Positions 12,749-63,475 of a DNA stretch of 64,000 nucleotides are shown one piece after another. The stretch comes from Eledone cirrhosa (taxonomy: Eukaryota). The number at the start of each line of letters is the position of its first letter. The first letter of the stretch is position 1. Under the pieces are notes generated by a model. It did not search any database and was not told the DNA's origin. It saw nothing but the letters and a program-made list of their open reading frames with translations. Made by a program: the position numbers and the translations under genes. The DNA lies in assembly GCA_964016885.1 (NCBI GenBank), contig OZ024741.1, positions 149,172,001 through 149,236,000 of the forward strand, given 5' to 3'.

Positions 12749-13481
12749 GCGCGCGCACACACGCACACACACACACATACACACACACACGCGCGCGCGC
12801 GTCTGTGTGAATGGGTGGATGAGTATCCTCCCTCACTATATATGATGAGCAAATTAATAAAATAGATAAATGTATACCGAGTCGATATCTCTTTAAGGAG
12901 TTTTAATACTATTGTTGCTGTTGTTATTGTTGTTTTTGTTTCATGTTTCTGTTTCAATATAAACTGGACAATAGGATTTCTAATGAGGCTGTGATTTATA
13001 ACAACGGTTTATGAGAATGTTTTAGTAGAATGTACAATGTTATACAAGCGGTGCTCTTATCTAAATGATGAAAACACACACAAACACCATCGCCGCCGAC
13101 TCAAGGGAAGACGATCGATTCCTATCACACGTTCGTATTTTCACAGTAACAAGTTGAAAATCAGTTGGAAAAAGAAAAAAAAAAAGGAAAGAAAATAGAT
13201 AAAAATAGAGATGAAGATAAACAAGAAAAAAAAAACGTTTTTATGGCAAAAGCCAAAATCAATATTTCTTATATTGCTGCTAACGAGTGTATCCATTGCA
13301 GTTCAGCAGTGTAGTAGTGGTACTTACCTTATACCGTCGTGTCTAAACATCATTTTAATATGTCGAATACCTCTGGTTTAGGGGTGGCGTTTGATTAGGG
13401 AGATTGTAGGGATAGAGAAGGGAGCATCATGTTATCGTCTGCTCCTCCAATTCCATTTAATCCAGCATCACATCATTCGAT

Positions 13482-14118
13482 ATGCTAAACTTCCCCAGTC
13501 GCTACAACACCGACTGGATGTCGGAGCTGTCGGACCAAACATCTTTAGCACACCTAACAGTACCAGGCACACACAATACTATGGCTCATTACGGCGGCGA
13601 TATGGCAGAATGTCAACATTGGTTGTTATATTCACAACTACAGGCTGGAATACGTTTCTTAGATATTCGCTGTCGGCATTATCGCAATGGCTTACCAATA
13701 CATCACGGTATCAAATACCAACACGCTGATTTCCCCATGGTTTTGCGAGAGGTCTTTCGATTTCTGCAAGACTATCCCACAGAGACCATCATTATGCGCA
13801 TTAAAAAGGAATTCCAGTCGGCCGAGAACTCCCGACCTTTCGAGGAAACGTTCCAGGCCTCCATTGAACAATACATGAGGGATGGTCGAATATGGAACCG
13901 TTACACTTCTATTCCCATTCTTGGAGACGTTCGCGGCAAAATTGTTATCTTGCAAGATTTCCGAGGGTCTCCGTACGGACTGGATTATAATAATGGAGAT
14001 ATGTTTTCTATTGAGGACCACTGGAAAGTGCCTACAATTCTGGACTTACACATCGGACACAAATGGCAGCATGTCAAACGTAAACTAGACACTTCCGGTG
14101 AGGACGAGGAAAGTTCCG
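13482..14118 (+). CDS. PI-PLC X-domain protein (bacterial-type 1-phosphatidylinositol phosphodiesterase-like), coding exon 1
   Basis: Motifs DWMS.L.D..SL..LTVPGTHNT, QL.AGIRFLDIRCR, PIHHG, FL..YPTETIIMRIKKE, P.LGDVRGKIVILQDF, with both catalytic His present; donor G|GTAAGT at 14118/14119, phase 1. The start codon is uncertain. Confidence 0.9.
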
Positions 14119-14294
14119 GTAAGTTGAACTTTATTATTACTTTCAGGAACTAGTTTAGGGTACTTCCTGTAAAGTGTAATGCCTAGTGTACCCGACAGTA
14201 TCTATATAGGAATAGAGCCACTACAATATACTAACTACAATTCAGTACCTTAATAATAATACAGTACCTACTATAGGATGTCAGTCCCTTGTAA

Positions 14295-14550
14295 AGCTGT
14301 AAAATTTAGCCCACCCCTAAGCTGGCAATAGGCCATGGCCAGATGTAAAACATACACCCCCCAACAAATTGGTACTAGGCTCAGCAATAGGCCCAGAATA
14401 CATATAAAATATAAGCACCCAAAAGCTGGTAACAGGCCCATTTCAGATGTAAAATGTACCCCCTCCCTCGAGCTGGTAATAGGTCCAAGTTTGATGTAAA
14501 ATGTATGTACCCTAAGCTGTTAATAGGCACAGACTAGATATGAAATGTAG
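14295..14550. repeat. Degenerate tandem repeat (about 45 bp) in the intron
   Basis: About 5-6 units of agctggtaataggcc...gatgtaaaat. Confidence 0.6.
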
Positions 14551-14932
14551 GCCCTATTTTCAAACTGCTTATTAAATATTTGAGTAATCAGTATGGGTTA
14601 TAGGTATGTATTATATATGTACATGTTGTGTACCGAAACATTCACAAGTAACAGAACAGAATAAAAGAACCAGAATGATTTGTGAAAATGTAACAGGCCC
14701 TCTTCCAAATCGTTGGTCCATGCTAACTGGTCTGCTTGCACCCCTTCCTTCTGTTCTGGCCTGCCAAATATACTGTACAATAACTCGTTCATTCGAATAA
14801 CTATAGAGTTGTACACACTACTACATTGAAAGTAGTGTGTAGAACACACACACACACACACACACATACATACACACACACACGCACATACATACATACA
14901 TACATACATACATACATACATACATACATACA

Positions 14933-14964
<32 letters not shown>

Positions 14965-14986
14965 CTGCACTAACAAAAATATTATT

Positions 14987-15017
<31 letters not shown>

Positions 15018-15213
15018 TGCATTCACGAAAATATTATATATATATATATATCAACTAGAAATTGATTAACATATATATATATATATCTAAAATAAACACA
15101 TGTAACAATCACAGGGGATAATTTGTAAAGTGTGTAAGCACATACAGCTAGGTAGGTAACTAATTAAAGTTTAACTAAAACTTCAAATATAGATACCTTT
15201 TAATATATACCTT

Positions 15214-15286
<73 letters not shown>

Positions 15287-15870
15287 CGAGCCAACGAGGG
15301 AGCCTCTCGGTGATCGTCCGATCTACTTGAAATAGTTGCTGCGGTCAACCATACCATCTACAAAGGAAGGTCACGTTGGATAATGTAGTCTGAGACATCT
15401 CTAAAATAAGGAATCGTCGCAGCTAGATCACCTATCATCATAGGTCTGTCCGATCAATGTAGACCTGTAGATAAAGAAGAACATTATCGGTGTTAAACTT
15501 AATCCATCGTCCATTTTAACACCTCACCTGGCCCTGGGGTGGTTTTAACAGCGTCCACTCTGTTGCAAGTATTTGAATCAGGTCTCCGGTTTGAGAATAG
15601 CTTCCTTCCTCACTCCCTCACACTATTCTTAGAGACCTCGAAATGGGCCAATCGGACTACATTTCCCTCCCTCACTAAACAGTAAAAAACAATAACAAAA
15701 AACAAAAATACGATATCCTATATTATATTTACAACACTACAGGACACATTACATATATACTATATATCCGTACTAATACACTACACTATAGGTATACTGC
15801 ACTCTAGATATATTACACTATAGATATACTATACCACACTACAGATATACTGAAGCACAGGTAGAGAACA

Positions 15871-17210
15871 CTATAGATATACAATACTATAGTGCAGATA
15901 TGTTATTATAGATATACAATACTATAGTGCAGATATGTTACTATAGATGTACAATACTATAGTCCAGATATGTTATTATAGATATACAATACTATAGTCC
16001 AGATATGTTATTATAGATATACAATACTATAGTGTAGACACGTTACTGTAGATGTACAATACTATAGTGTAGATATGTTACTGTAGATGTACAATACTAT
16101 AGTGTAGATATGTTACTGTAGATGTACAATACTATAGTGTAGATATGTTACTGTAGATGTACAATACTATAGTGCAGATATGTTACTGTAGATGTACAAT
16201 ACTATAGTACAGATATGTTATTATAGATATACAATACTATAGTGCAGATATGTTATTATAGATATACAATACTATAGTGCAGATATGTTACTATAGATGT
16301 ACAATACTATAGTCCAGATATGTTATTATAGATATACAATACTATAGTGCAGATATGTTACTGTAGATATACAATACTATAGTGTAGATATGTTATTATA
16401 GATATACAATACTATAGTGCAGATATGTTACTGTAGATATACGATACTATAGTGTAGATATGTTATTATAGATGTACAATACTATAGTGTAGATATGTTA
16501 CTGTAGATGTACAATACTATAGTGCAGATATGTTACTGTAGATGTACAATACTATAGTGTAGATATGTTACTGTAGATGTACAATACTATAGTGTAGATA
16601 TGTTACTGTAGATGTACAATACTATAGTGTAGATATGTTACTGTAGATGTACAATACTATAGTGTAGATATGTTACTGTAGATGTACAATACTATAGTGC
16701 AGATATGTTACTGTAGATATACAATACTATAGTGTAGATATGTTACTGTAGATGTACAATACTATAGTGTAGATATGTTATTATAGATATACAATACTAT
16801 AGTGCAGATATGTTACTGTAGATGTACAATACTATAGTGCAGATATGTTACTGTAGATATACAATACTATAGTGTAGATATGTTACTGTAGATATACAAT
16901 ACTATAGTGCAGATATGTTATTATAGATATACAATACTATAGTGTAGATATGTTACTGTAGATGTACAATACTATAGTGCAGATATGTTACTGTAGATAT
17001 ACAATACTATAGTGTAGATATGTTACTGTAGATGTACAATACTATAGTGCAGATATGTTACTGTAGATGTACAATACTATAGTGTAGATATGTTACTGTA
17101 GATGTACAATACTATAGTGTAGATATGTTACTGTAGATATACAATACTATTGTGTAGATATGTTACTGTAGATGTACAATACTATAGTGTAGATATGTTA
17201 CTATAGATAT
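15871..17210. repeat. 35-bp minisatellite, about 38 copies
   Basis: Unit ctgtagatgtacaatactatagtgtagatatgtta; intronic. Confidence 0.97.
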
Positions 17211-17364
17211 ACGGCACTGCACTACAGCATAAACGCAATATACATACACTAACACACTATAGTAATGATAGTAAAGATTATAAACGTTTCAGGGTAACCA
17301 CTCATGTCACTGGAATCTACAATATATCTATGTGTGAGTGCGAGCGCGTATGTGTGTGTGTATG

Positions 17365-17452
<88 letters not shown>

Positions 17453-17542
17453 AAGGTTAAACAAGGTTCAATTAATAAATCAAAGAATAAAGTTTTACAA
17501 TAGATTAGACGCACTCCACAGTTTGGTTTTCCGGAGTTATTA

Positions 17543-17878
17543 ATATTAATTCAAAATATTAATAAAAATAGACATTCGTGTGATCAAGTATATTTTATTA
17601 TACATATTTCAGAGGTACTGAGCTATCTTCAACAGTACGTCCTCATCAGATAAAATAAGATGATGCATGACATACCCTGACTTAGTAGATGGTTAAAATT
17701 CAGTCATGGCAGTCATGCTGAATTTTAACCATCTACTTAGTCAGGGTATGTCATGCATCATCTTATTTTATCTGATGAGGACGTACTGTTGAAGATAGCT
17801 CAGTACCTCTGAAATATGTATAATAAAATATACTTGATCACACGAATGTCTATTTTTATTAATATTTTGAATTAATAT
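17543..17878. mobile_element. Fold-back palindromic element (about 336 bp) carrying hammerheads
   Basis: Near-perfect inverted repeat centred near 17710, between (TA)n tracts. Confidence 0.9.
17764..17830 (+). ncRNA. Type I hammerhead ribozyme (mirror copy 17591-17657 on -)
   Basis: UAUUUUAU-CUGAUGA-[GGAcGUACUG..CAGUACcUCU]-GAAA-UAUGUA-UA|AUAAAAUA; 8-bp stem I; predicted cleavage after 17822. Confidence 0.8.
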
Positions 17879-17900
17879 ATATATATATATATATATATAC

Positions 17901-18000
<100 letters not shown>

Positions 18001-18314
18001 TATGGGGTATATAAGAAGTCATTTATATATACCAATATGAACTGTACAGGTAATTGTACAAAGCGTCACCAGTCTTGTCACATTATATCGCACTGTATAT
18101 CTGTGTGAATTACGTTAAGGGTACACGTGTCTGTGAAATACTCAACAGTTTAAACGTTAATTTCATGAGCAGGCCGTTCCATTAATCGAACAACTAGATC
18201 ACTCATCGTCGAAACCGATGAAAGTTCATTTGCCACTTTGTTAGCCCCGTTTCGTACATCGAGTATTTCTGCTGAACACTTCTACCTCTGGAACTCTCTC
18301 TTTTCAAGTGGACG

Positions 18315-18610
18315 CTGGAATGGCTGAATGGTTAAGATATCCACAGTTCGGTCCCACTGCGTGATATCTTGGGCAAGTGAATGAATTTGAGTAGACAGAA
18401 ATTGTATGGAAGCCCGGCAGGTGGATTTTATCTGTAATTCAAGATCCAGCCCGGTTGCATATTGTCTCATGCTGGTTCATCTTGGGAATTACGTTATGAC
18501 CACACGCGTCTGTGTTCGGAATACACAGCTACTTACTTATAAATTCACGAGTTGGACGTTCTATTGATTGTACAACTACATGATCATCGTCGGAACCGAC
18601 GAAAAATTTA
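18315..18610 (+). mobile_element. SINE family B
   Basis: tggctgaatggttaag head, cttgggcaagtg core, shared tail. Confidence 0.7.
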
Positions 18611-19744
18611 TCATGTTTTTAAAGAATGAAGAATGACTTCGGTTTATTCCTTTCATGCAACATTGTTATCTTACACAAACGTTCACACACACTCGCTTCT
18701 TTTCCACACACATACTTACATCCACACACACACACACACACATACACACACTCACATCTACATATACACACACACTTTACCCTCCACCGTCTCTTCCTAG
18801 ACTCTGAGTATTTTGGCAGCCTCCTCTATCTAGCCTCTCCTCCTTCTCCCCCTCAACCCACACCCCTATCCCCACTACCACACCCTTCACACTGGACCTA
18901 TACCCCTATCCCTTTTATTTTTATTCTTATTTTTATTATCATTATTTTTTTTTTTACATTGTAACTTCCCTCCTTGGAGATCCTGTTCTTCCCCTATCCG
19001 AACTTTCCTGATGAAGGACTTCTGTCCCTTCATTTCCCTGTTGTCTCACTAGATATTAATCTAAACTATAGTAAAGGAAGGTCTGCGGGACTGCGTACGA
19101 TTTATTCTTTTTTTATCCCGTTAGTAAAATAAGTTGGATTACTTTGAATAAATAATGAATGAATATTACATAATTTATCTACTAAATTTCGTAAACAAAA
19201 ATAATTTCGTAAAATTAAATAATTTAAAATTGACTTCTTTTCAAAGTTGCACTTCCAGTATATCTTTACCCCCACCACTACTTCAACTACCATATATATA
19301 GAAAGAGAGAGAGTGTGATGTCAACACTTCCGGTGGCGATCACTTAAATAAACATACTAATTTTCTGTCACTAATTTTCTCCTAATGTAGTTTATATATG
19401 ATATCGTCTTTTTTTTTATGTATAATGGATTACGTTACTGATTACATAAGACAGTGTAACAACGTCTTCGTTCAATTTCTGTGTATATTGTCAATTACGA
19501 TTATATTTGATGTATCATATCTACATGTATATATACTTGCGTATAATATCAATATACACACTACACATGCTAGCAGAAAACCACGCGAAAGGTGGTTTTT
19601 CTGCTAGTCCTATATAATATTGTTAAATGTCTCTTTATATTTAAGGCAATCGTTAAATAGATTTATCTCTGTACTGATCATAATTTAAAGTTGTAATCGG
19701 ATTTTAAAAAATAGAACTGTTTGCAATATTATCTGGCCTCGGGG

Positions 19745-19960
19745 ATAGTGGATTGGCAGAATTGGCAGAGCGTCGGATAAAATGCTATTGCTGTGTTTAT
19801 TCAGGGTCTTTACATTTTGAGTTCAAATCCTGTCGCGGTCAACTTTGCCAGTCATCCTTCCGAGGTCGATAAAATAAAGTACCAATCAAGTATTGGGGTT
19901 GATTTAATCAACTTTACCTTTCACCCGAATTTGCTGGCCATATGCCTAAACTAGAAATCA
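19745..19960 (+). mobile_element. SINE family A
   Basis: A/B boxes and tcatccttccgaggtcgataaaataaagtacc central domain (MetaSINE/MESC-like). Confidence 0.8.
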
Positions 19961-20644
19961 GTATTATCTCACCTCATTGGGAATGGTGAAGACAGAGCCA
20001 ACTGAAGATGCCGGCAAGTCGGGCTGTCAGTCCCCGTCCTAGGGCATCACGCGCAGAGGCTGCTATGCTACGTGTCTGGAGTCTTCCAAATACAACAAGC
20101 AAAATGTGAAAATAAATAAAATTAAATAAAGTAAAAAAAAAAACCCTCTTAATTACATCTATAGATGAACAGCACCATTTCTTTAGTTTCTCTCACACGC
20201 CCATCCCCCTCACAGATTTTGTTTGTAACGACAACGAGTGGGAAGTGGGCCGGTGTTTATAACGACGATGGGTAGAGGATAGTTGATGTTTAGAACGATG
20301 ATGAGTGGAGCATGGGTAGGTGTTTTCCAATAATAGATATATGCTCCACCCCAACACTGCCGTGGATTAACCCTTTCATTACTATATTCCTAATGAAATA
20401 CACTACTTATGATTTTTAATAAATTTAGAAATAATAAACAATTCAAAGGAATTTAGTTAAATGACCAACCATATTAAAAGCTGGTATTTAGGACATAGCT
20501 TAAAGATATTTTCCAATAACATAATTTCTTTTTTTTTAATATGAACAGTTTAAAACAAGAGATTTGTTTGATCAGAGAATTGGGGCGGTTTTGAGCGGCT
20601 TAGTATTAAACAGTGTGATGAATTATTATTATTAGAACCGAAAT

Positions 20645-20870
20645 TAGGGCGGTGGATTAGCAGTATCGGTAGAACGTCGGTCACCATGCTTTGCAGCAAA
20701 GTGTTACGTCCTTTTACGGCCTAAGTTCAAATCCCTCCGAGGTTAGCTTTGCTTTTCATCCTTACGGGGTCGATAAAATAAAGCGCCAGTAATGCACTGG
20801 GGTCGATTTAAACGACGTTCCCCTCCCCTAAAATTGTTGACCTTGTGCCTAAATCAGAAACCATTATTAG
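20645..20870 (+). mobile_element. SINE family A
   Basis: ggcggtggattagcagtatcggtagaacg...agttcaaatccc...ttttcatccttacggggtcgataaaataaag...ccttgtgcctaaatcagaaacc. Confidence 0.8.
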
Positions 20871-21059
20871 AACCGAAACTCGGGTCAAGCTATTGATGTT
20901 TTTCAATCTACAAAGAAATATGTAAATAAGACCTGTTCACACATTTACATATGTAAATGTGTTTACATTTTCATTTCTCAGAGCTTCAGTTAACTCCTGC
21001 ACTGTTTGTGTATAGATACGAATTTATTGTATATTTCAGTTGCTTAGCGCACAATTTAA

Positions 21060-22079
21060 TCTATATATATAAAACTGTGGTTGTCTGTCTGTCTATCGAT
21101 TTTTGGCACACATCTCCTCTTAGAATCTCTCACGGAATTGCACCGAAATTGCTATACTTGTACATTGAGCCCTAGCGAAGACATCGGAAAAAAAAATTTC
21201 AAATTGACCCACCCTATGTGACGAAATCGAATATAATGTATCGATTTTTGAGCGTAAGTTATCAGTTATTTCCCTTTGTTCTGTTTACATTGAGCGTCTT
21301 ACGTAAAAAATTACGCTGGCTTTAACAGTTGTCGAGCCAGCAAAATATTGACCTGCAAAATTCATCAGTTCGAACACTAAGCTTCCGTTTTGCTTCATTT
21401 CCATTTAAAAGCATTTTAAAACAATATTTTTACTTGAAAACAAGTCTATTTAAAGACTACGTAAAACAAGCAAATATTTCGTCGTTAGGCGTGCAGACAG
21501 ACAGTCGTGCAGACAGACAGTCGTGCAGACAGACAGTCGTGCAGACAGACAGTCGTGCAGACAGACAGTCGTGCAGACAGACAGTCGTGCAGACAGACAG
21601 TCGTGCAGACAGACAGTCGTGCAGACAGACAGTCGTGCAGACAGACAGTCGTGCAGACAGACAGTCGTGCAGAGAGGTGATATACGCGTGCAGACAGATA
21701 GTCGTGCAGAGAGGTGATATAGGCGTGCAGACAGATAATCGTGCAGAGAGGTGATATAGGCGTGCAGACAGACATAACTGATAATTTGGTTACGCTAATG
21801 TTTTTCTCTGCGTTGCAGTGTTTACATTTTCGATCTTTGTTAATAAATAACCAGTGCAGTTTCTATCCCCAGCATCCTCTTTTGTTATAACATTCGGGTT
21901 ATCGTTATGTTTTCTTAACTTCATAAGGCATATTGTTGGTTGAGGGAATATTAATCAAAAACACCACATGCAAGTCTGCACAGTAGACACTACAGTTTTT
22001 AAGCCAAGAAAGAAACTTAACATTGTAACTTTAACACAGCTACTGAGCGACCCCGAGCAACGCCGGGCTTTACTGCTAG
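21060..22079 (+). mobile_element. Non-autonomous Helitron
   Basis: A|TCTATATATATAAAA 5' end; subterminal hairpin cccg-agcaacgc-cggg; CTAG|T 3' end; inserted in an AT dinucleotide; no TSD. Confidence 0.85.
21491..21775. repeat. 16-bp minisatellite inside the Helitron
   Basis: About 11 perfect copies of gtgcagacagacagtc, then longer variant units. Confidence 0.95.
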
Positions 22080-22410
22080 TATATAATAGAATTAACTACC
22101 AACGTAAACACTAACATTATGCAAATCAGCAGATCCAGTTCTCAGTTACTACCACATTTGATGGGTTTGTAAAGCTTTTAGTTACGTATTTCTCCGTGGA
22201 ATATGGACGGTGTTGATAACGTTTGATGAAGGTCACAGCAAGGACCCAAACTCGTGTCAAGCTATTTTTATTTTTTTTTACAGTCTGCGGAGAAATGCGT
22301 AAATAAAACCTGTTTATATGTTTACATATATAAATGTATGTGTTTATAACACATTTCTCGCAGCTTCAGTCAAATCCTGCACTTGTATTTTTATTTTTTT
22401 TTATTTTCAG

Positions 22411-22631
22411 TTATATATATCACATACACCAGTGGAACAAGCTTCTGGGCTTGGCCTAAGGCCGTAGCTAATCGTCTCAACCCTCGGCTCCAGGAGTATT
22501 TACAGGGAAAGAAACCCAAGAAACGATTTGGTATTATCTGTATGGATTTTCCAACGATCAATCTGGTTGAATCTATAGTTCGTTGTAATTTTCAATCGGG
22601 ATCGAACTCACTGTCCACTTGTAAGAAATGA
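22411..22631 (+). CDS. PI-PLC X-domain protein, terminal coding exon
   Basis: Polypyrimidine tract + CAG acceptor at 22410; G+TT rebuilds Val in frame; IYITYTSG..P..VANRLNPRL..YL...RFGIICMDFP..LVE.IV..N is the typical PI-PLC C-terminus; stop TGA 22629-22631. Confidence 0.88.
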
Positions 22632-23062
22632 ATTCATCACATACATTGGCGAAAACACTAACTACAATAATTTCACTTTTAAAAATATCTCACACATCAG
22701 TAACATCGTTTATAAATAGAGAAGTGATTTAAGAGTGATGTTCCCTTGTGTGCATGTAGAGTGTGGATGTAAGGGAGGGGTTGTTAGATCTAAGGCCGGT
22801 TAGACAGGGTGTCGATCATGGTATTTACCAGAGAGCCCGAGGCCCCGTCACAAATTAAAAAAACTATTAAAGAAAAAATTTTTTAAATATGTTGTTTTGG
22901 AAATATACCGGTCCCATATCTCTTATATATATGTGTGTGTGTTGTGTGTATATATATGTGTGTGCGTGTATGCATGTGTGTGTGTATCCCGGGTTCAATC
23001 GGGAGTAACCACAGTAAGTAAGGTACTCAATACATAGCAGAGTATAAATATTTAATATAGAA

Positions 23063-42592: not shown

Positions 42593-43174
42593 GTAGGAAG
42601 TTATAGTTCACTTGAAGCATTGTGTAATGAGGTATAAACGTTTGTATATGTATAATAAAGCCAAAACAATGCAGGTATGGACATAGAATAAAGAATGCAA
42701 ATGCAAAAGATATTGTTGACAATTAGTCTTTTACCTTAGATTTATTTAAATGTCCTTAATTTTCGAGATAATATCTCTTCTTCGGAGGGAAGTAAAGCGG
42801 TTAAACCAGTGTTCTAAATAGCTTGCCAAGTCATGCTGACAGGAAATGGTATAGAGTATCTGTTCTATCTCTAATATCAAAGAGTTAAGGTTAGGTGGAT
42901 AAAGAGTAGTCTCCCTTTAAAAGTGGTTTTTTTTTTTGTACATGCTTGTTTAAGTGTGTGGGAGAATGCGTGAAGGTGTAAGTATGTGTGTGTGAGTGTG
43001 AGAAGATATGTCTATACGTAAATGTGGGGGATAGATGTTATCTCGTGTTAGAACTGGTCTTTGTGTGTGTATGTGTGTGTGAGAGAGAGAATAAGTGGAG
43101 GTGTAAGCGTGTGTGTGTGTGTGTGTGCGTGTGTGGGGGGGAAGGAGGGTGTAAATATGGCGCTAGATGCTCTA

Positions 43175-44499
43175 TCAAGTTATAAATTGGGTGTTGAGTT
43201 CTAGTCTATTATTGATTGGTGGTTGTGTTTTGTCTATAATTAGTGCTTCCTTAATTCTAAGATTGCCGAGGTTTCTTTCCTTAGTTTCTATCCTAACTGT
43301 TATGGTTTTGTCGGTGTTTTTGCATTTAACTAGGTGTTTCTTAAATGAGGAAGCGTTAGTATTGAGGTGTTCTTTTATTCTTATGTGGAGTGGTCTGGTG
43401 GTGCCACCTACGTAGAAGTTGCTGCATTTGTCGCACTCTAGTCTGCATACGACGTAAGCTTGGTGGCATAGGTCTGTGTCGTTGATGGGGCAGTTGGCTA
43501 GCCTGCAGCTGTTGTCATGTCTGGTTGAATGTCTTTTGGTTAGCTGTCCGCGTAGAGAAGAACCTGAGTGGGCCAGTTGGATATCTAGTCCCTCTCGTCT
43601 GATAGCTCTGCGGATGGCTGTTGTTGTTTCGTCACTGAAGTGTGGGAGCTTCGGGAAGCAAGTGTTAGTGCCTCGTGTGTGGTGTCCTCTGTTCTTTCTG
43701 GCACGGTTTGTGGTGGATGTCGTGTATCCGTTCAGTTTGAGTACTTCCAGGGAATGTGTGATGTGTGTGTCTCGGTCTCTAGCGTCGGTGCATTCGTTCC
43801 GGATACGTGTTAGTTCGTTCCTTATGTATCCGAACTTAGCGCCGGCTGGGAGGGCCGATCTGAAATGTACGAACAGGTCCCTGCTGGCGGCTTTTTTATA
43901 GAAGCAGGTGTGGATGTTGCCTTCCTCTGTTACCCTGAGTTGGAAGTCCAGTAGTGATAGGGATCCGCGGTCATCGGGGTGTTCCATGCTGAACATTATA
44001 CTGGCGTCCATGCTGGAGAATGTTGTGTATATTTTATCCGCCTCGTCACGGAATGATGTAAGGATGAGTATGTCATCTACATATCGGGTGAAGAAGGTAT
44101 GGGAATGGCAGGTGTTGAGGGCTCGGCATTCTAGCTGGTTCATATAGGTGATGGCCAGCAGGCCCGATAGGCTGGATCCCATGGGTAATCCTGTTGTCTG
44201 TCTGTATGTGTGGTGGTGGAAGGTGAAGTACGTGTTGCCCACTGTGAAGGACAAAAGCTGGTGTATGTCCGTCGGATGGAGGCCGTAGCAGTGGATGTCC
44301 TCTGCGACCACGCAGTCCGTCAATAAATCGACAGCTGGATGAGCGGGGACTGTAGTGTAGAGGGAGACAACGTCGAGGCTAAAGGCGTATCTATTTAGTT
44401 TAAGTTGTTCTGGCTGGAGTTGGTGTAGTCTACATATGACTTCGCCGGAGCTACTGACCCCGGGAAAGGTGGAGAGTAGAGGCTTGAGGACCTGGGAGA
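43175..44499 (-). pseudogene. PLE RT + GIY-YIG endonuclease, 5'-truncated but open
   Basis: FSLDVVSLYT, GLPMGSSLS, RYVDD, LDF, YKK, then C..C..FYVGGTTRPLHIRIKEH...KEA..I....P.IN. Confidence 0.9.
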
Positions 44500-47012
44500 A
44501 GATCCAGCTATCTGAAAAGGGCGCCAAAGCCCGCTGCCAAATAAACTTCCTAAAACGATGTCTGAATAACAACATCAGCCCCAAAACTATCAAAAACTTG
44601 CACCTACCAACATGCTTCAAATCACCAGGCCTCAAACGATCACTTAGCTACATACAAAAATTCTGCCTAAGAAAACTCATACAACACCTACACCACACGC
44701 TATAACAACACATACGGACTATTTCCAGCCTTGTACCACAACTCGCTGAAACCCCAGAACCTCTGTCCAGAGTTATCTCCGCCGCTATAGACAGGTCATA
44801 CCACCATCGCCGAGACTACGAGAAAATACGCCTAACGCAAAAATTTATCAAACTCAGCACGGCTAACCGTCTTAACAACATCCCAACTCTAAGCACCAAC
44901 AGAGGCGAACAAGACGGTACCAACACCGAACCTAACGGCGCCCCGACCAACAACACACCTGACGCAAAACACCTCGTCACAGACTTGACAGGATCCCTCC
45001 CCCGAGAGGAATTAGACCTCCTCAGCCTGGGTCCCAAGTTCATATTGAAACAGGGACTGGACGACAAATTATGGCTCAACATAGAAACGAATTTCTGTCG
45101 GGCTGCCTACCAACTAAAATGGATATCGACTCTCGGCAACAACACCACGGAATCTATCAAACCCAGATTCCCGATATACCAACTAGATCGCCCACTCTGT
45201 CCACCGCCTGCCAACCGCGAGCTTGAAGAAAAACTCTCGAGGCTAAAACATTCCGTATTTAACATCTTACGGTAACAGAAGAAGATAGCCCCAAACCTCT
45301 CCAGGACACAACAACTCGCTCTGAAGAACCTACGGAATAGGGAACTTATATACTTACCATCCGACAAAGGTAAAGAGTTTTGCGTCATCTCTCAAGCCAC
45401 ATACAACAACCTAGCCTTTGAACACCTAAGCGACAATTAACTATATACAGAGATCCCGGACATGACTGCAGCCCAGATCGAAAAACAGACCAGCTCCATC
45501 TGGTTCGACATCTGTAGGAGAAGACAACTCCCAAATAAAGTTAAGCTCAACTACACCACTAGAAATAGCAGACTGCCCACTTTCTACCACCTCATCAAGA
45601 CCCACAAGAAGAGTACTAAGACACAAATAAGACCCATCGTCTCTAGCATAGAAGGACCCCTATACAAAATTACCTGCCTCCTCTCCCAGGTCCTCAAGCC
45701 TCTACTCTCCACCTTTCCCGGGCATGTCAGTAGCTCCGACGAAGTCATACGTAGACCACACCAACTCCAGCCAGAACAACTTAAACTAAATAGATACGCC
45801 TTTAGCCTCGACGTTGTCTCCCTCTACACTACAGTCCCCGCTCATCCAGCTGTCGATTTATTGACGGACTGCGTGGTCGCAGAGGACATCCACTGCTACG
45901 GCCTCCATCCGAAGGACATACACCAGCTTTTATCCTTCACAGTAGACAACACGTACTTCACCTTCCACCACCACACATACAGACAGACAACAGGATTACC
46001 CATGGGATCCAGCCTATCGGACCTGCTGGCCATCAACTATATGAACCAGCTAGAATGCCGAGCCCTCAACACCTGCCATTCCCATATCTTCTTCACTCGA
46101 TATGTAGATGACATACTCATCCTTACATCATTCCGTGAGGAGGCGGATAAAATATACACAACATTCTCCAGCATGGACGCCAGTATAAAGTTCAGCATGG
46201 AACATCCCGATGACCGCGGATCCCTATCTCTACTGGACTTCCAACTCAGGGTAACAGAGGAAGGCAACATCCACACCTGCTTCTATAAAAAAAGCCGCCA
46301 GCAGGGACCTGTTCGTACATTTCAGATCGACCCTCCCAGCCGGCGCTAAATTCGGATACATAAGAAACGAACTAACACGTATCCGGAACGAATGCACCGA
46401 CGCTAGAGACCGAGATACACACACACCACACATTTCCTGGAAGTACTCAAACTGAACGGATACACGACATCCACCACAAACCGTGCCAGAAAGAACAGAA
46501 GACACTACACCCGAGGCACTAACACTTGCTTCCTGAAGCTCCCACACTTCAGTGACGAAACAACAACAGCCATCCGCAGAGCTATCAGACGAGAGGGACT
46601 AGATATCCAACTGGCCCACTCAGGTCCTTCTCTACGCGGACAGCTAACCAAAAGACATTCAACCAGACATGACAACCGCTGCAGGCTAGCCAACTGCCCC
46701 ATCAACGACACAGACCTATGCCACCAGGCTTACGTCGTATACAGACTAGAGTGCGACAAATGCAGCAACTTCTACGTAGGTGGCACCACCAGACCACTCC
46801 ACATAAGAATAAAAGAACACCTCAATACTAATGCTTCCTCATTTAAGAAACACCTAGTTAAATGCAAAAACACCGACAAAACCATAACAGTTAGGATAGA
46901 AACTAAGGAAAGAATCCTCGGCAATCTTAGAATTAAGGAAGCACTAATTATAGACAAAACACAACCACCAATCAATAATAGACTAGAACTCAACACCCAA
47001 TTTATAACATGA
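44500..47012 (+). pseudogene. PLE ORF (N-terminal region, RT, GIY-YIG) with stops and frameshifts
   Basis: LLSLGPKF, PSDKG, FYHLIKTHK, RPIVS, RYVDD; in-frame stops near 44703, 45273 and 45438; frameshift near 46290. Confidence 0.92.
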
Positions 47013-47403
47013 TAGAGCATCTAGCGCCATATTTACACCCTCCCTCCCCCACACACACGCATGCACGCACACACACACACACACGCTTACACCTCCACTT
47101 ATTCTCTCTCACACACACACACATACACACACAAAGACCAGTTCTAACACGAGATAACATCTATCCCCCACATTTACGTATAGACATATCTTCTCACACT
47201 CACACACACATACTTACACCTTCACGCATTCTCCCACACACTTAAACAGGCATGTACAAAAAAAAACACTTTTAAAGGGAGACTACTCTTTATCCACCTA
47301 ACCTTAACTCTTTGATATTAGAGATAGAACAGATACTCTATACCATTTCCTGTCAGCATGACTTGGCAAGCTATTTAGAACACTGGTTTAACCGCTTTAC
47401 TTC

Positions 47404-47438
47404 CCTCCGAAGAAGAGATATTATCTCGAAAATTAAGG
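47404..47438 (+). ncRNA. Minimal variant hammerhead in the PLE 3' region (mirror 42754-42788 on -)
   Basis: CCU-CCGAAGA-A-GAGAUA..AUCUC-GAAA-AU-UA|AGG; U4C core variant, loopless palindromic stem III. PLE pLTRs are known to carry minimal hammerheads. Confidence 0.6.
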
Positions 47439-47552
47439 ACATTTAAATAAATCTAAGGTAAAAGACTAATTGTCAACAATATCTTTTGCATTTGCATTCT
47501 TTATTCTATGTCCATACCTGCATTGTTTTGGCTTTATTATACATATACAAAC

Positions 47553-47626
<74 letters not shown>

Positions 47627-49002: not shown

Positions 49003-49784
49003 AAGCTGTCTAAACGTATTGTTATAACTCTGGGGTATTATTCTCCATCGAGTGCTAAGCTGCATTCCGAATCTGCATTCGTTAGCTTGGCCGCAGTCAA
49101 AAGCTTCGTTAATGCTGTACTAACATTTGTATTTTTAACTCCTAGAATTAACGATTAACTGATTAATTTAATTAGATAATTCTATTGATTGATTAATTGT
49201 TTGTTTGTTTGATAACTTCTGGTTGAGTGCTTAATTCGGTTTGTCTAAGGGAATTTCATTCCTTTGTCCCAAATTTCGAATTGACCGCCAAAACGGGGGT
49301 TACCTCCCTTTGGGAAAACCACGTGTCTATAGCGAAAATTACTGCTAGAAAACACACCCGTCGAGGCTATAGAACGCAAGACTTGTTGACGAAGTAAATC
49401 CTTTGTTGTGTCGTCAAAGGCCATTAACTTGCAGACCCCTGCAAGCGGAATTAGTCGATCTCAGATTTACAGAAACCTAGCGTGGATGTTGTATGTTATA
49501 TGTGATGTATATTGTATGCTATACGTTATGCTTTATGTGTTGCATTCGATGTCCACGTGATGGTCCATGTTAGTCAAAATCTTTTCCTGAGTTCGGTTTT
49601 TTTTCGTTGCTATGGCAATGCGGCTAGACTGTCGGTCGCTATATTTGATTTGCAAAGCTGTCTAAACGTATTGTTATAACTCTGGGGTATTATTCTCCAT
49701 CGAGTGCTAAGCTGCATTCCGAATCTGCATTCGTTAGCTTGGCCGCAGTCAAAAGCTTCGTTAATGGTGTACTAAAATTTGTAT
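49003..49784. mobile_element. Element with 130-bp near-identical direct repeats
   Basis: 49003-49132 matches 49655-49784 with about 2 mismatches; ends in (TA)n; related inverted fragment near 61775-61802. Confidence 0.7.
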
Positions 49785-52366: not shown

Positions 52367-52639
52367 TCTTCAGATTTATTATTATTACTATATATATATG
52401 ACACGCATTAGGCGCTGTGACATGTGCGTTCAACAACACATAGTTCTCAGTCTTCTTAAGTCTTTTGAAGTGAAAGGTACGAATTTCCTGGATACCCGTA
52501 GAAGAGCACAGGGATAGTGACTGTCACTTAATAATTGTTGCAAAACATTAGTGTCTGCAGTTCTGTTTACATGCCAACACAAGAACAAAAATGAGGGGCT
52601 CATTTTACTGAGTCTTGTTTGCATAATTGGAAACGAATC

Positions 52640-53460
52640 GAACATACAAAACTTAACATTCCTTTTAATTTAGCCAAACGTATATGCACCATAGTATCAG
52701 ACCCAGTTAAACGGGAACAAAGACTAAATGAACTCAAATACACACTTACCTTAAGAGCCTTCCCACTTGACATAATTAATAACGGAACAGACAAAGCAAA
52801 ACATGCAAATTTTCATCAACCCAACAACCCAAAGCACAGAACCACAAACAATATTTTACCATATGTATCCACGTTCAACCCCCAAAACACCGAAATGTTC
52901 GACCTCCTACATGACCCTCCCCCTATTTAAAGATGAAAAAATTTTAAAAAAATTCTAGAAACACACAAGATCATCAAAAGCAAAAGGCAACTAAAATCAC
53001 TAAAACACATTCTCACTGGAACAAAGATACACAAACCTATCTCCAACCTTACGGTAACAAAATGCGGAAGAAGAAACTGTGGAACATGCCTATACTTAAC
53101 TGAAGGACATAAATTCCCGTTTAAATATGGCCAAACTTTCACAGTGATAAACAAAACAACTTCACTTGCAACTCGGAGAACCTGATCTATGTAATCACAT
53201 GTGGTGGTTGCCGACATAACTATATAGGACAGACGGAGTTGTCATTACGCAAAAGAATGACCATCCATCGCCAACAAATCCGAGACGTAAACACAAGGAA
53301 AATCCCCTTAAGTAGCCACATTGCAGATTGTGCAGGAATGACTCTACCCAACTTTAAAATCTTCCCCCTTTACAAGTGCTCCGATTCTTACACTCAACAA
53401 CAAAGAATAAATAGGGAAAAACTATTTATTAACAAATTTAAACCAAAACTAAATATGTAA
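52640..53460 (+). pseudogene. Second PLE, 3' fragment (thumb, Cys-rich linker, GIY-YIG)
   Basis: NIPFNLAKRICTIVSD, KCGRRNCGTC, NLIYVITCGGC..NYIGQT..SLRKRMTIHRQQI...RE..FI.KF.P.LN; frameshifted; sequence distinct from the 42.6-47.6 kb PLE. Confidence 0.85.
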
Positions 53461-53774: not shown

Positions 53775-54619
53775 GGAACGCTGTACTAGTTTCAAGCTTA
53801 TTAGCTATCATCAGCAACGTATACCTTCCTGCCAGATGATTGAACGTCTGAAAGTATATACTTTCCTTATGCCATATTAACGGCTGAGCAGCCTAATTTG
53901 CATATCGAGTGAGTTAATCGGCCGGGGTACCGAAAACGATAAACGGAAAAAATGAAAAGAAATTTCATTTCTCACTCTTAGTACGGCTGTTACTTAAATA
54001 TAAGTATGTATACGTACATACATATATGTATACAGACGTACAGTAGTATGTATATATATATACATACATACACACATATATACATGTACGTATGGATTCA
54101 CCGAACATTTATTATAATGCTCGGTGTGTTTGTAAACAAACATCCCGAATTAAGCCGTACAGTGTCTAAGAGTGAGAAATGAAATTTCGTTTCATTTTTT
54201 CCGTTTATCATTTTCGGTACCCCGGCCGATTAACTCACTCGATATGCAAATTAGGCTGCTCAGCCATTAATATGCATAAGGAAAGTATATACTTTCAGAC
54301 GTTCAATCATCTGGCAGGAAGGTATACGTTGCTGACGATAGCTAATAAGCTTGAAACTAGTACAGCGTTCCTTTATCAGTGTTGAACAAATGAGTAACGA
54401 TGGTTGCTAGACACTGTATAGCTTAATTCGGGGAGTTTGTTTACAAACACACCGAGCATTATAATAAATGTTCGGTGAATCCATACGTACATGTATATAT
54501 GTGTGCATGTATGTATATATATATACATACTACTGTACGTCTGTATACATATAAGTATGTACGTGTACATACTTATATTTAAGTAACAGTGAGAAATGAA
54601 ATTTCGTTTCATTTTTTCC

Positions 54620-54625
<6 letters not shown>
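53775..54625. mobile_element. Permuted/inverted copies of an approximately 420-bp hammerhead-bearing unit
   Basis: 53775-53980 is inverted at 54168-54371; 53985-54167 is inverted at 54407-54590. Confidence 0.85.
54326..54368 (+). ncRNA. Minimal type I hammerhead (copies at 53778-53820 and 55827-55869 on -)
   Basis: ACGUUG-CUGACGA-U-AGCU-AAUA-AGCU-U-GAAAC-UA-GUA|CAGCGU; palindromic stem III ACUAGU. Confidence 0.85.
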
Positions 54626-54782: not shown

Positions 54783-54874
54783 ACATATCTGAGGAGCTTC
54801 AGATTCCAGAATCAGGTTCGATCATTAATAGATCGTTCCTCGAGCTGATCGACAGTGAAACATATGTAATATGT
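54783..54874 (+). ncRNA. Type I hammerhead, extended stem II
   Basis: ACAUAU-CUGAGGA-GCU...AGU-GAAAC-AUAU-GUA|AUAUGU. Confidence 0.72.
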
Positions 54875-55660: not shown

Positions 55661-56172
55661 ATGTATATATATACATACATGCACATATATATATATGCAC
55701 GTATCGGTTTACCGAACATTTATTATAATGCTCGGTTTGTTTGTTTGTAAACAAACAAACAGCCCGAATTACGCCGTACAGTGTTTAGGCAACCACGTCA
55801 CCTTTTTGTTCAACACTGACACAGGAACGATGTACTAGTTTCAAGCTTATTAGCTATCGTCAGCATCGTATACCTTCCTGCCAGATGGTTGAACGTCTGA
55901 AAGTATATACTTTCCTTTTGCATATTAACGGCTGAGCAGCCTAATTTGCATATCGAGTGAGTTCAGTCGGCCGAGCACACCGAAAACGATAAATGGAATA
56001 GAATGAAACGGTAAACTGATACATGCATATATATATGTGTGCATGTATGTATATATATATATATATACATACTACTATACGTCTGTATACATATATGTAT
56101 GTACGTATACATACATACTTACATCTAAGTAAGTGCCGTACTAAGAGTGAGAAATGAAATTTCGTTTCATTC

Positions 56173-56238: not shown

Positions 56239-56450
56239 CGGAGGAAATGTGGTAAGGAACCAGGTGGACCATAACGCACCAAAGTACTCAATACTTAGGG
56301 TAGTAGTAGAGTGGGTAATAGGAACGAGTAGGACCCCGACGGCTGAGCTCAAGCCGTTTCGACGGCTAATTCTGGACTAAAAAAAAAAAGTCCAGAATTA
56401 GCCGTCGAAACGGCTTGAACTCAGCCGTCGGGGTCCTACTCCTTCCTATA
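56238..56450. mobile_element. Approximately 200-bp hairpin element family (copies 57165-57300, 59567-59775, 62030-62218; diverged 59830-60015)
   Basis: Shared tgtggtaaggaaccag.tggaccataacgcacc..agtactcaatacttaggg leader plus about 60-bp GC-rich inverted arms; each copy lies between (TA)n tracts. Confidence 0.9.
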
Positions 56451-57119: not shown

Positions 57120-57166
<47 letters not shown>

Positions 57167-57903
57167 CAAAGGAATTGTGGTAAGGAACCAGATGGACCAT
57201 AACGCACCAGAGTACTCAATACTTAGGGTAGTAGAGTGGGAAATAGGAAATAGCCGTCGAAACGGCTTGAGCACTGCCGTCGGGGTCATACTTTTTCCTA
57301 TATATATATATATAGTTACCGTATTTTTTCGGAATTCAAGACGCATCCTTATTTTGGAAACAAATTATTGTAGTTTTTCACATTTTTATTCGGTGTACAG
57401 GACGCAGAGCATTTCGCTCGGATTAACACCATCATCTGGCCCTGGGTGGTGGTGTGGATTTAGTAGAATTAAATTCGTTCAAACATTTTAATCAAATCGT
57501 CACTCTGAAGATGTATTACTCAATATTACTCAGTATTACTTCAGTCATGGTTTCTCCTCCCTCCTCGACCACAACCGCCAGCCTTTTCAGTGATCTGTGA
57601 AAAGTTATACGAAGGGGCGGGGGCTGCTCTCCCCCCTCTGACTGGGTCATACAAAATTAGCAAAATGTCCCACTTCCACTCGCATGAAGGTAAAATATGA
57701 TATCACATGAGATATAACATGATACTCTCTCGTGTCTTTTGTAAAACATCGTGACGGACAGAATTACGAATGCGTTACCTCGAGGAATAGCGAGAGAGAT
57801 GCGCTGAAACCATTATTTATTAGATAGGTGGTCGCCAACCTTTTCACTAGAAAGGACCCCCTTTTATTTAAATGTATTTTCCCCCATTACAATTACTCTG
57901 CTC

Positions 57904-59505: not shown

Positions 59506-59570
<65 letters not shown>

Positions 59571-59772
59571 AAAAAGTATGACCCCGACGGCAGAGCTCCA
59601 GCCGTTTCGACGGCTATTTCTGGACTGAGGTAGCTGTCCAGAAATAGCCGTCGAAACGGCTCGAACTCTGCCGTCGGGGTCATACTTTTTCCTATTTCCC
59701 ACTCTACTACCCTAAGTATTGAGTACTCTGGTGCGTTATGGTCCATCTGATTCCTTACCACAATTCCTTTGT

Positions 59773-59830
<58 letters not shown>

Positions 59831-60098
59831 GATGGATTCAGTTTGAAACTGGTTAGACCAGTACTCAACAGAGTACTCGATACTTAGGGTATTAGAGTAT
59901 GGTTATATTATAATAAATTGGGACCCCCGATGGCTGATCTCTTGCCGTTTTAACAGCTAGTTCCAGACTCAGCTGTTAAAACGGCAAGAGCTCAGCCGTC
60001 GGGATCCCGACTCTTTAGTATATATATATGTATATATATTTATACATACATACATGCATACATATATGCATACATACATACATACATACATACATACA

Positions 60099-61917: not shown

Positions 61918-62032
<115 letters not shown>

Positions 62033-62214
62033 CGGAGGAGGTGTGGTAAGGAACCAGATGGACCATAACGCACCAGGGTACTCAATACTTAGGGTAGTAG
62101 AGTGGGTAATAGGAGAAAGTATGACCCCGACCGCAGAGCTCAGGCCGTTTCGACGGCTAGTCCAGAAATAGCCGTCGAAACGGCTTGAGTTCTGCCGTCG
62201 GGATGACACTTTCT

Positions 62215-62416
<202 letters not shown>

Positions 62417-62825: not shown

Positions 62826-62888
<63 letters not shown>

Positions 62889-62891
<3 letters not shown>

Positions 62892-63218
62892 ATCAAAAGA
62901 TGGTTAAAGGAGTTCCATGTATTTTATTATGCGCATTTCAAAAACAAACATCATCATGCAATAATAATATTTGTGTTTTCATCAGATAAAACAGGAGGAC
63001 ATGATATGAAGGCTAAAAAACACTTGTGGATAGTGCAGTTTTAAATCAACACATATGTTGATTTAAAACTGCACTATCCACAAGTGTTTTTTAGCCTTCA
63101 TATCATGTCCTCCTGTTTTATCTGATGAAAACACAAATATTATTATTGCATGATGATGTTTGTTTTTGAAATGCGCATAATAAAATACATGGAACTCCTT
63201 TAACCATCTTTTGATCTT
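62889..63218. mobile_element. Fold-back palindromic element (about 330 bp) carrying hammerheads
   Basis: Inverted repeat centred near 63053 (aatcaaca-cata-tgttgatt); arms differ at a few stem II positions; (TA)n flank. Confidence 0.9.
63114..63187 (+). ncRNA. Type I hammerhead (mirror in the left arm on -)
   Basis: UGUUUUAU-CUGAUGA-AAAcACAAAUAUUAUUAU..AUGAUGAUGUUUGUuUUU-GAAA-UGCGCA-UA|AUAAAAUA. Confidence 0.8.
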
Positions 63219-63475
63219 ATATATTATGTATACTCCAGTCCTACAAACTGTAGAGTGCTTCTTATCCGATATCTGCATTGCTTTATTGTACTACAATAAA
63301 ACTCACCTCCTACATATATATATATACAGAAAGAGAGAGATTAAAAAGAATCGAAGTCAGTGTTTGCAGCATGAATACAAACATTATTGGCATAAGTTAA
63401 CACACCTGACTTATAATATATATATATATATATATTGGAAAATGTGTGTAATCCTTGGTACAGTTAGGTATATTA

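Follow-up and report, generated by a model that had tools for sequence, protein, structure and literature searches.

The window, by which we mean the whole 64,000-nt stretch of Eledone cirrhosa DNA analysed here, contains two palindromes for which a preliminary description had proposed one ribozyme blueprint under selection, and this raises the question of what the palindromes are and on what any such selection acts. Both palindromes are present, with inverted arms at 17538–17703 and 17718–17883 (166 nt, 98%) in the copy at 17.7 kb, hereafter family A, and at 62883–63051 and 63056–63224 (169 nt, 100%) in the copy at 63.0 kb, family B. Across the 64-kb window a type I hammerhead descriptor matched one ribozyme motif in each of the four arms. 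In family A the cores lie at 17772 on the plus strand (predicted cut after 17822) and at 17649 on the minus strand (predicted cut after 17599); in family B they lie at 63122 (plus, predicted cut after 63179) and 62985 (minus, predicted cut after 62928). The pattern is far above chance, with a mean of 0.03 and a maximum of 1 match in 30 shuffled windows. All features of a type I hammerhead are found in the arms, namely the CUGANGA and GAAA cores, stems I–III and the NUH site, and the shared details described previously hold as well: stem I is UUUUAU/AUAAAA, the cleavage triplet is AUA, stem III carries a compensatory A-U to G-C swap (AUAUGUAU versus AUGCGCAU) and in stem II three pairs precede a mismatch, either C.C or C.U. 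At 54789–54868 on the plus strand lies a fifth, unrelated hammerhead-like motif of type I, which has a long stem II and a palindromic stem III and sits in a TA-flanked element of a different family.

The two loci had been said to have little overall similarity, and the identity of arm plus tail is indeed only 61%, against 53% in 100 shuffles; as this is above the shuffle maximum of 59%, the resemblance is weak but real. Rfam returned only sub-threshold miRNA or snoRNA matches, with no hammerhead model among the matches listed, and a miRNA precursor was rejected as their identity. Folding predicts a collapsed hammerhead core in the isolated arm, and in the full palindrome it pairs the core with the antisense arm (p about 1.0; MFE −278 to −298 kcal/mol). 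The hammerheads are predicted type I ribozymes, which in family A have a minimal, near-palindromic stem III: descriptor and folding place one at 17764–17830 (plus), predicted to be sequestered in the full palindrome, and the descriptor places the other at 17591–17657 (minus), in the long arm.

Neither palindrome is confined to its locus. In the 3.0 Gb genome to which the window belongs, and to which all genome-wide counts refer, exact 30-mers matched 3,606 times for family A and 14,643 times for family B, and a pattern common to both hammerheads gave 33,060 matches (control, 0). At least 13 close opposite-strand pairs, counted by eye, were seen among the first 100 hammerhead matches listed; such pairs, 100–700 bp apart, have already been noted in truncated Penelope-like elements (PLEs; Cervera and de la Pena 2014, PMC4209133). 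The palindromes are 94% (family A) and 99% (family B) identical to ORF-linked copies, and in full-length copies the arm with its extension forms the 5' leader of an RT-endonuclease (RT-EN) ORF, while the arm without the extension recurs at the 3' end. The family B leader lies directly upstream of the RT-EN ORF, and this family is young, since 150 of 150 scored N-terminal matches were 96–100% identical, many of them in 821-aa open frames. A first pattern for the continuation of the family A tail had 0 genome matches, and the ORF partner was located through its RT instead; the family A leader opens into a homologous ORF, broken in most copies, which shares about 50% identity with that of family B. 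It is virtually certain that both palindromes are head-to-head 5'-truncated stubs, an inverted pLTR joined to a pLTR with a tail, which two high-copy Hydra-clade PLE families have left in (TA)n.

The encoded protein fits this assignment. A single ORF, 800 aa from the ATG in copy L102, contains an RT together with a C-terminal GIY-YIG-type EN, and its predicted structure (pLDDT 82.8) has RT and TERT as top fold matches. Pfam gave no match on the Hydra-type ORFs, and the EN was therefore assigned through motifs and alignment. The DKT motif is found in families A, B and G (a third family of the window, described below), and the N-terminal RWK occurs as variants, RWR in families A and G and RW(I/T) in family B. 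The CxCX5C linker, the CxxC and the CxH read CNCRIKNKC, CNLC and CLH in family B, with no CCHH in the EN, and CNCPDRSIC, CNLC and CKH in family G; in family A only CNCRNRPDC was found, read in a broken copy. Between RT and linker, family B has an insert of about 75 aa that is rich in Asn and Thr and predicted with low confidence (L061:5000–5250; P0021); it recalls the N-rich inserts described for rotifer Penelope (PMC3846280). The canonical hammerhead is present in the pLTR of families A and B, and 45 of 54 family A ends and 68 of 83 family B ends have a TA repeat no more than 4 nt away.

These properties agree with those given for the Hydra clade of C-terminal-EN PLEs by Craig et al. (2021, PMC8557442), which has the RW, DKT, CxCX5C, CxxC and CxH motifs, no CCHH, (TA)n targets, a canonical pLTR hammerhead, tandem and inverted arrangements and a tail at one end, and which is listed there in an octopus, a coral and a sea cucumber. 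The elements described here differ from that account in their tails (about 60–100 nt, against 30–40), in their unit length (3.5–3.9 kb, against under 3 kb) and in that family G lacks a hammerhead. The literature already describes truncated pLTRs in inverted arrangement, one-ended tails, (TA)n targets and pLTR hammerheads as PLE features; taken by themselves, the palindromes are therefore ordinary PLE stubs, and we propose that they are inert copies. Two further hammerhead-bearing Hydra-type families of the host genome, family C (L017, L030, L074 and L127) and family D (L121), have the same hairpins and TA-bounded ends. Among relatives outside the host, L163 bears the hammerhead listed for Penelope-1_NV, and L158 has two different hammerheads 137 nt apart (2262 and 2399) at its 3' end. 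Other PLE remains also occur in the window. A head-to-head PLE of another clade at 42600–47600, with RVT_1 and weak GIY-YIG Pfam matches and cysteines inside the EN region, has a one-sided tail of roughly 40 nt in (TA)n and no hairpin match; a PLE fragment at 52595–53460 on the plus strand contains a GIY-YIG domain (Pfam E 2.2e-06), and nested inverted copies of another repeat at 53780–54620 and 55700–56170 have arms of 182–211 nt that are 90–96% complementary.

The 17.7-kb copy had been placed in a PI-PLC intron, and this placement stands. A plus-strand exon at 13461–14118 (Pfam PI-PLC-X, E 6.5e-13) ends at a GT donor (14119), and past the AG acceptor at 22410 the reading frame runs on into 22411–22631, a second exon in which Pfam found no match. 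Among the matches listed for the PI-PLC exon there was no RNA record. From these signals we infer the splice 14119–22410, that is the plus-strand intron of the PI-PLC X-domain gene that would host the family A stub. It had also been suggested that the pre-mRNA could be cleaved there. This is unlikely, because any single transcript would contain one sense ribozyme together with its own antisense, leaving the core predicted as paired, and because PLE hammerheads with a minimal stem III are reported to lack activity as monomers and to have little of it as dimers (PMC4209133); in that study the short palindromic stem III, which resembles the one found here, is thought to need dimers, and the ribozymes predicted here differ in their longer stem II with an internal mismatch. 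A host-selected ribozyme pair whose 17.7-kb member cleaves or regulates PI-PLC pre-mRNA would be in keeping with the intact cores, the intronic position and a core that in the stubs is slightly poor in rare variants (4 seen, about 10 expected). The per-site counts, which are small and come from copies taken as best matches, are 3/567 in the core, 9/595 in the hairpin and 128/11,195 elsewhere for family A stubs, and 1/553, 3/455 and 66/9,560 for family B stubs, and they show no deficit in hairpin 1 (see below) among stubs. Together with the 33,060 genomic matches and the fact that on either strand the antisense arm would be transcribed first and sequester the core, this makes such a host function extremely improbable, and the genome-wide copies and core sequestration led us to reject it. 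The common blueprint itself is real and is explained by the common descent of two PLE families. Likewise, the structure has been conserved by selection as was claimed, but that selection acted on the retrotransposon lineage and not on these two loci, which are two among thousands of recent stubs, and the divergent placement of the hammerheads is a by-product of head-to-head insertion.

What is constant in the leaders is another element. The preliminary description had noted a motif shared by the one-sided extensions, which we found at 17503–17537 on the minus strand (the 17538 given before is one base too long) and at 63232–63266 on the plus strand. In full-length copies this motif occurs twice between the hammerhead and the ATG, each time as a bulged hairpin of the form RCUC-N...N'-UH-GAGY-RCU, with a basal RCUC/GAGY stem, a 2-nt bulge on the 3' side (UU in 37, UA in 6 and UC in 6 of 52 hairpins), an upper stem that varies and a flanking RCU. 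The second copy lies just past the end of the tail in full-length members of family A, family B and further families of this genome. From 5' to 3' the leader consists of a putative TATA box and initiator, the hammerhead, hairpin 1, a spacing of 57–99 nt, hairpin 2 and the ATG of the RT-EN ORF, hairpin 2 being 13–58 nt upstream of the ATG in every family that has it. The TATA and initiator labels follow the usual consensus sequences and PMC3846280; the signal is weak in family B. Five more hairpin matches in the window, at 49027 and 49679 (plus) and at 59898, 61865 and 23043 (minus), lie in short TA-flanked stubs, probably of further Hydra families, and the one at 23043 comes after a hammerhead-like core.

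With this layout the anatomy of both stubs can be read. The long arm of family A, pLTR plus tail, spans 17446–17712 on the minus strand and is 94% identical to the 5' leader of the ORF-linked copy L145. Its start adjoins the putative initiator, and its other end (end 2) falls about 3 nt short of the position of hairpin 2 in full-length copies, the exact point being blurred by TA microhomology. The short, inverted arm (17718–17879, plus) stops at end 1, about 5 nt before hairpin 1, and is followed by (TA)n(TG)n. Hairpin 1, the motif described previously, occupies 17503–17537 on the minus strand (hairpin proper 17537–17511; ACUC, upper stem, 2-nt bulge, GAGU-GC), and the tail (17446–17537, minus) extends from end 1 to end 2, the hairpin spacing being 97 nt in L140. 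The stub is flanked by a (TA)n target array on the left (17371–17450) and by another on the right (about 17876–17997). In family B the short inverted arm (62883–63051, minus; hammerhead 62920–62993) has its end 1 4–7 nt before hairpin 1, and the long arm (63052–63315, plus; hammerhead 63114–63187), 99% identical to the leader of L061, carries hairpin 1 at 63232–63258 (plus, by motif match) and reaches end 2 within (TA)n, 4–6 nt before hairpin 2. Of 15 joints shown in matching contigs of unrecorded kind, 11 have one side at 63048–63053, which fits a fixed 5' point in family B. The idea that the extension is an RT-recognition signal is plausible, but the motif within the tail marks the short end, and the long end adjoins a second hairpin, which the stub never includes.

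The hairpin is not restricted to this genome. A metagenome scan yielded 79 loci of relatives, 27–48% identical, most of which, if they have a leader, share this layout. After removal of 5 of 47 entries (one indexing artefact, three duplicates and one without upstream sequence) the motif set comprised 42 families; at least one GAGYRC hexamer lies within 150 nt of the ATG in 35 of them, both hairpins could be parsed in 19, and in the other 7 of the 42 the hexamer is absent from these 150 nt, in leaders taken as they stand and possibly truncated. Of the 58 hexamers within 150 nt upstream of the 42 ATGs, 47 form the full hairpin; of the 30 that occur in 63,417 nt of ORF, none does. Its first upper pair is formed in 50 of 52 hairpins (37 C-G, 13 U-A), where 5,000 shuffles gave a mean of 40.8 and a maximum of 46, and fits with a 2-nt bulge and with no other bulge length. 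Pairing holds in 91% of the cells of a 50-row alignment, and both sides changed in 44 cases, against 15 in shuffles (0/500). Two of the five measures taken did not exceed shuffles (122/500 and 105/500), and three of the basal pairs are invariant. An RT tree of 19 rows, from which four short ORFs had been dropped beforehand, requires four changes for the C-G/U-A swap, at least three of them independent and forced by well-supported branches. RNAalifold recovered only the 4 basal bp from the hairpin alignment, and folding gives the upper pair of hairpin 2 a low probability (median p 0.14). Among the consensi of PMC8557442, read by eye, Hydra-2_Amil, Hydra-1_Ajap (both copies) and Hydra-2_Ajap contain the hairpin, the 3' end of Hydra-1_Ajap halts just before hairpin 1, Hydra-1_Crog and Hydra-1_Obim have hairpin variants, and in Hydra-1_Amil, which is incomplete, it was not seen. 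As far as aligned sequences can tell, the hairpin recurs in relatives from other animals, including coral and sea cucumber, with repeated C-G/U-A swaps.

Insertion ends fall at these hairpins. In an unbiased sample made of the first 30 family A and the first 30 family B loci, chosen on the hammerhead alone, 59 of 60 copies have their end no more than 16 nt 5' of a hairpin (33 at hairpin 1, 26 at hairpin 2), where uniform ends would give about 20%; the modes relative to the hairpin are −5 and −3 in family A and −4 to −7 in family B. A larger, less neutral sample, freed beforehand of a yardstick with a TA run (F42) and of overlapping loci, gave 54 of 57 family A and 83 of 98 family B ends that fit hairpin sites. 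Among relatives outside the host, 14 of 24 stopping matches end at a hairpin, the other 10 being cross-family matches (9 of them to one yardstick). Very likely, then, it is the hairpins that set the insertion ends. The pairing of ends is stricter still. All 56 classifiable head-to-head pairs of families A and B within 1.5 kb (19 of 19 in the unbiased sample; 35 of 91 pairs were unclassifiable) combine one end 1 with one end 2, and over families A, B and G together 74 of 75 classifiable pairs have one arm at each site, the single exception being a 1/1 pair in family G. Wider-spaced divergent family B neighbours, inspected by eye, fit mixed ends in five of six cases, and one is 2/2. The 5' starts peak at one point in 9 of 30 family A and 11 of 30 family B copies, and many copies extend further. 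Leader layout, end positions, end pairing and (TA)n targets are all directly visible in the genomic copies.

Family G provided an out-of-sample prediction. Its stub at 59565–59778 (plus; motif match, boundaries approximate) is a lopsided palindrome with hairpin 1 at 59701–59726 and no hammerhead, and sequence matches place further stubs on the minus strand at about 57120–57300, 56250–56450 and 62000–62220. We predicted a hairpin 2 right after the tail end; it was found 3 nt beyond, with 437 genome matches (control, 0), and it leads to an intact 719-aa Hydra-type ORF. The family is abundant and forms 3.54 kb tandem units, whose 1,286-nt spacer contains no CUGANGA hammerhead core; hence the hairpins, and not the ribozyme, are the constant part. 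At loci chosen independently of G, 56 of 63 ends fit hairpin sites, 18 of 19 classifiable pairs are mixed (end 1 plus end 2), and 40 of 63 5' starts coincide with a T(T/C)AGT point that lies some 28 nt below a TATA-like box, with only one upstream of that point. The 5' end region of family G also contains a GCCGUC-GAAA-CGGC hairpin.

A mechanism can be sketched by combining the hairpins, the ends and the family G result with the in vitro data on Poseidon_Ac (PAc; Frangieh et al. 2024, PMC11167929). There, internal RT initiation takes place at two sites, which delimit the tail, both target strands are nicked and extended, hammerhead mutants still insert, and a dimer is predicted. In the scheme that we favour, and hold to be reasonably probable as a whole for both stubs, two RT-EN molecules would bind the twin hairpins of the leader RNA, one per hairpin, and the GIY-YIG EN would nick both strands of (TA)n. 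Each subunit would then prime from the opposite target strand, one at site 1 and the other at site 2, a few bases 5' of its hairpin. On a template started at the pLTR promoter, a start suggested by the TATA/Inr-like sequence, both cDNAs, by then some 170 and 260 nt long, would run off the RNA 5' end, and their head-to-head joining would yield a lopsided palindrome as at 17.7 and 63.0 kb, with the one-sided tail as the interval between the two cDNA starts. Read-through or tandem templates would give long inverted or full-length insertions from the same two starts, and the hammerhead would be a pLTR passenger, dispensable for the insertion step. Protein binding, action at the RNA level, the dimer and the transcription start are what we infer in this scheme. 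Taken singly, it is likely that the hairpins act as RNA bound by the RT; that both cDNA starts occur in one coupled complex is a proposition towards which we lean with less assurance, the strict 1+2 pairing suggesting two coupled starts on a sense template.

PAc and the scheme proposed here agree in two tail-bounding RT starts, AT-rich targets, cutting and extension of both strands, a dispensable hammerhead and a dimer. They differ in that PAc belongs to the Poseidon clade and starts in an AC-rich stem-loop within the ORF, distinct from the hairpin motif found here; its binding motif is bracketed only to the first 172 nt, and the portions of PMC11167929 covered report neither a duplicated signal nor end pairing. 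Inspected by eye, the PAc start region appears to contain a pair of similar GCC...GAAAG stretches, which may be the counterpart, in that clade, of the twin signal. Adineta vaga Penelope (Arkhipova et al. 2013, PMC3846280) likewise has head-to-head inverted pLTRs, an optional tail and a pLTR with TATA and TCACT initiator, but its head-to-head arrangement was ascribed to self-priming on an antisense template.

The main rival to the twin-start scheme has the hairpins acting in DNA: the GIY-YIG EN would recognise a cDNA or DNA intermediate and trim it 3–7 nt upstream, so that the ends would record resolution and not RT initiation. PMC8557442 ascribes the tail to EN-mediated resolution, in older work cited in PMC11167929 the D. 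virilis EN needed the tail for DNA cutting, and the strand comparison, with 8 G.U against 7 A.C pairs in the upper stems and a basal stem that folds on both strands (median p 0.80 sense, 0.58 antisense), is compatible with it. We nevertheless consider it unlikely, given that in vitro mapping in another PLE places RT starts at both tail boundaries (PMC11167929), that the 2-nt bulge and covarying stems suit a folded single strand and that the sense strand folds better. Alternatively, RNA cleavage or termination just 5' of each hairpin might provide free 3' ends on which RT primes, with hairpin 2 mainly controlling translation from the ATG. The position of hairpin 2, 13–58 nt upstream of the ATG wherever it exists, and the RNA-seq read ends at start sites in PMC11167929 are compatible with this, but independent ends predict that about half of all pairs be 1/1 or 2/2, of which 1 in 75 was seen, and its probability is therefore low. 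Self-propagating non-autonomous units, MITE-like or retrozyme-like and copied whole, could explain why the palindromes are so numerous, why at least 13 close opposite-strand pairs appear among the first 100 matches listed and why they share a preferred centre; this is largely refuted and very improbable, for junctions and arm lengths vary from copy to copy, the same two ends bound full-length ORF copies and the palindromes do not form tandem arrays. A MITE identity was rejected on the differing junctions and shared ends, and a tandem non-LTR retrozyme identity because copies are head-to-head or solo and the tandem units seen are 3.5–3.9 kb and ORF-bearing. Non-LTR retrozymes (bioRxiv 10.64898/2026.07.22.740005) also have type I hammerheads derived from PLE pLTRs, but theirs are head-to-tail tandem units, unlike the head-to-head by-products of autonomous elements described here.

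The twin-start reading bears on the origin of inverted pLTRs and the one-sided tail in PLEs, the sister group of telomerase RTs, which the cited papers treat as an open question. The clade-wide twin hairpin signal and the 74/75 pairing rule appear to be unreported: the main text of PMC8557442, in which the words hairpin, stem-loop and bulge do not occur, makes no mention of twin hairpins or of one end per hairpin, and we found neither described in the literature covered, which consisted mainly of openly available papers and included PMC8557442 and PMC3846280 in part. The twin hairpins offer a defined cis-signal and a near-exceptionless rule, testable with purified protein of a young family that has many intact ORFs, and the twin-start reading would explain thousands of short genomic palindromes, some of them intronic, as by-products. 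Tentatively, and with slightly less than an even chance in our estimation, Hydra-clade PLEs may integrate two-ended, unlike single-start TPRT, with one RT-EN dimer docked by the twin hairpins and two simultaneous internal initiations per insertion. If so, a hairpin of roughly 25 nt, kept across animal phyla, would tell a telomerase-related RT where to begin, as a portable 'start copying here' tag, and such a movable RT start tag could serve RNA-templated insertion tools.
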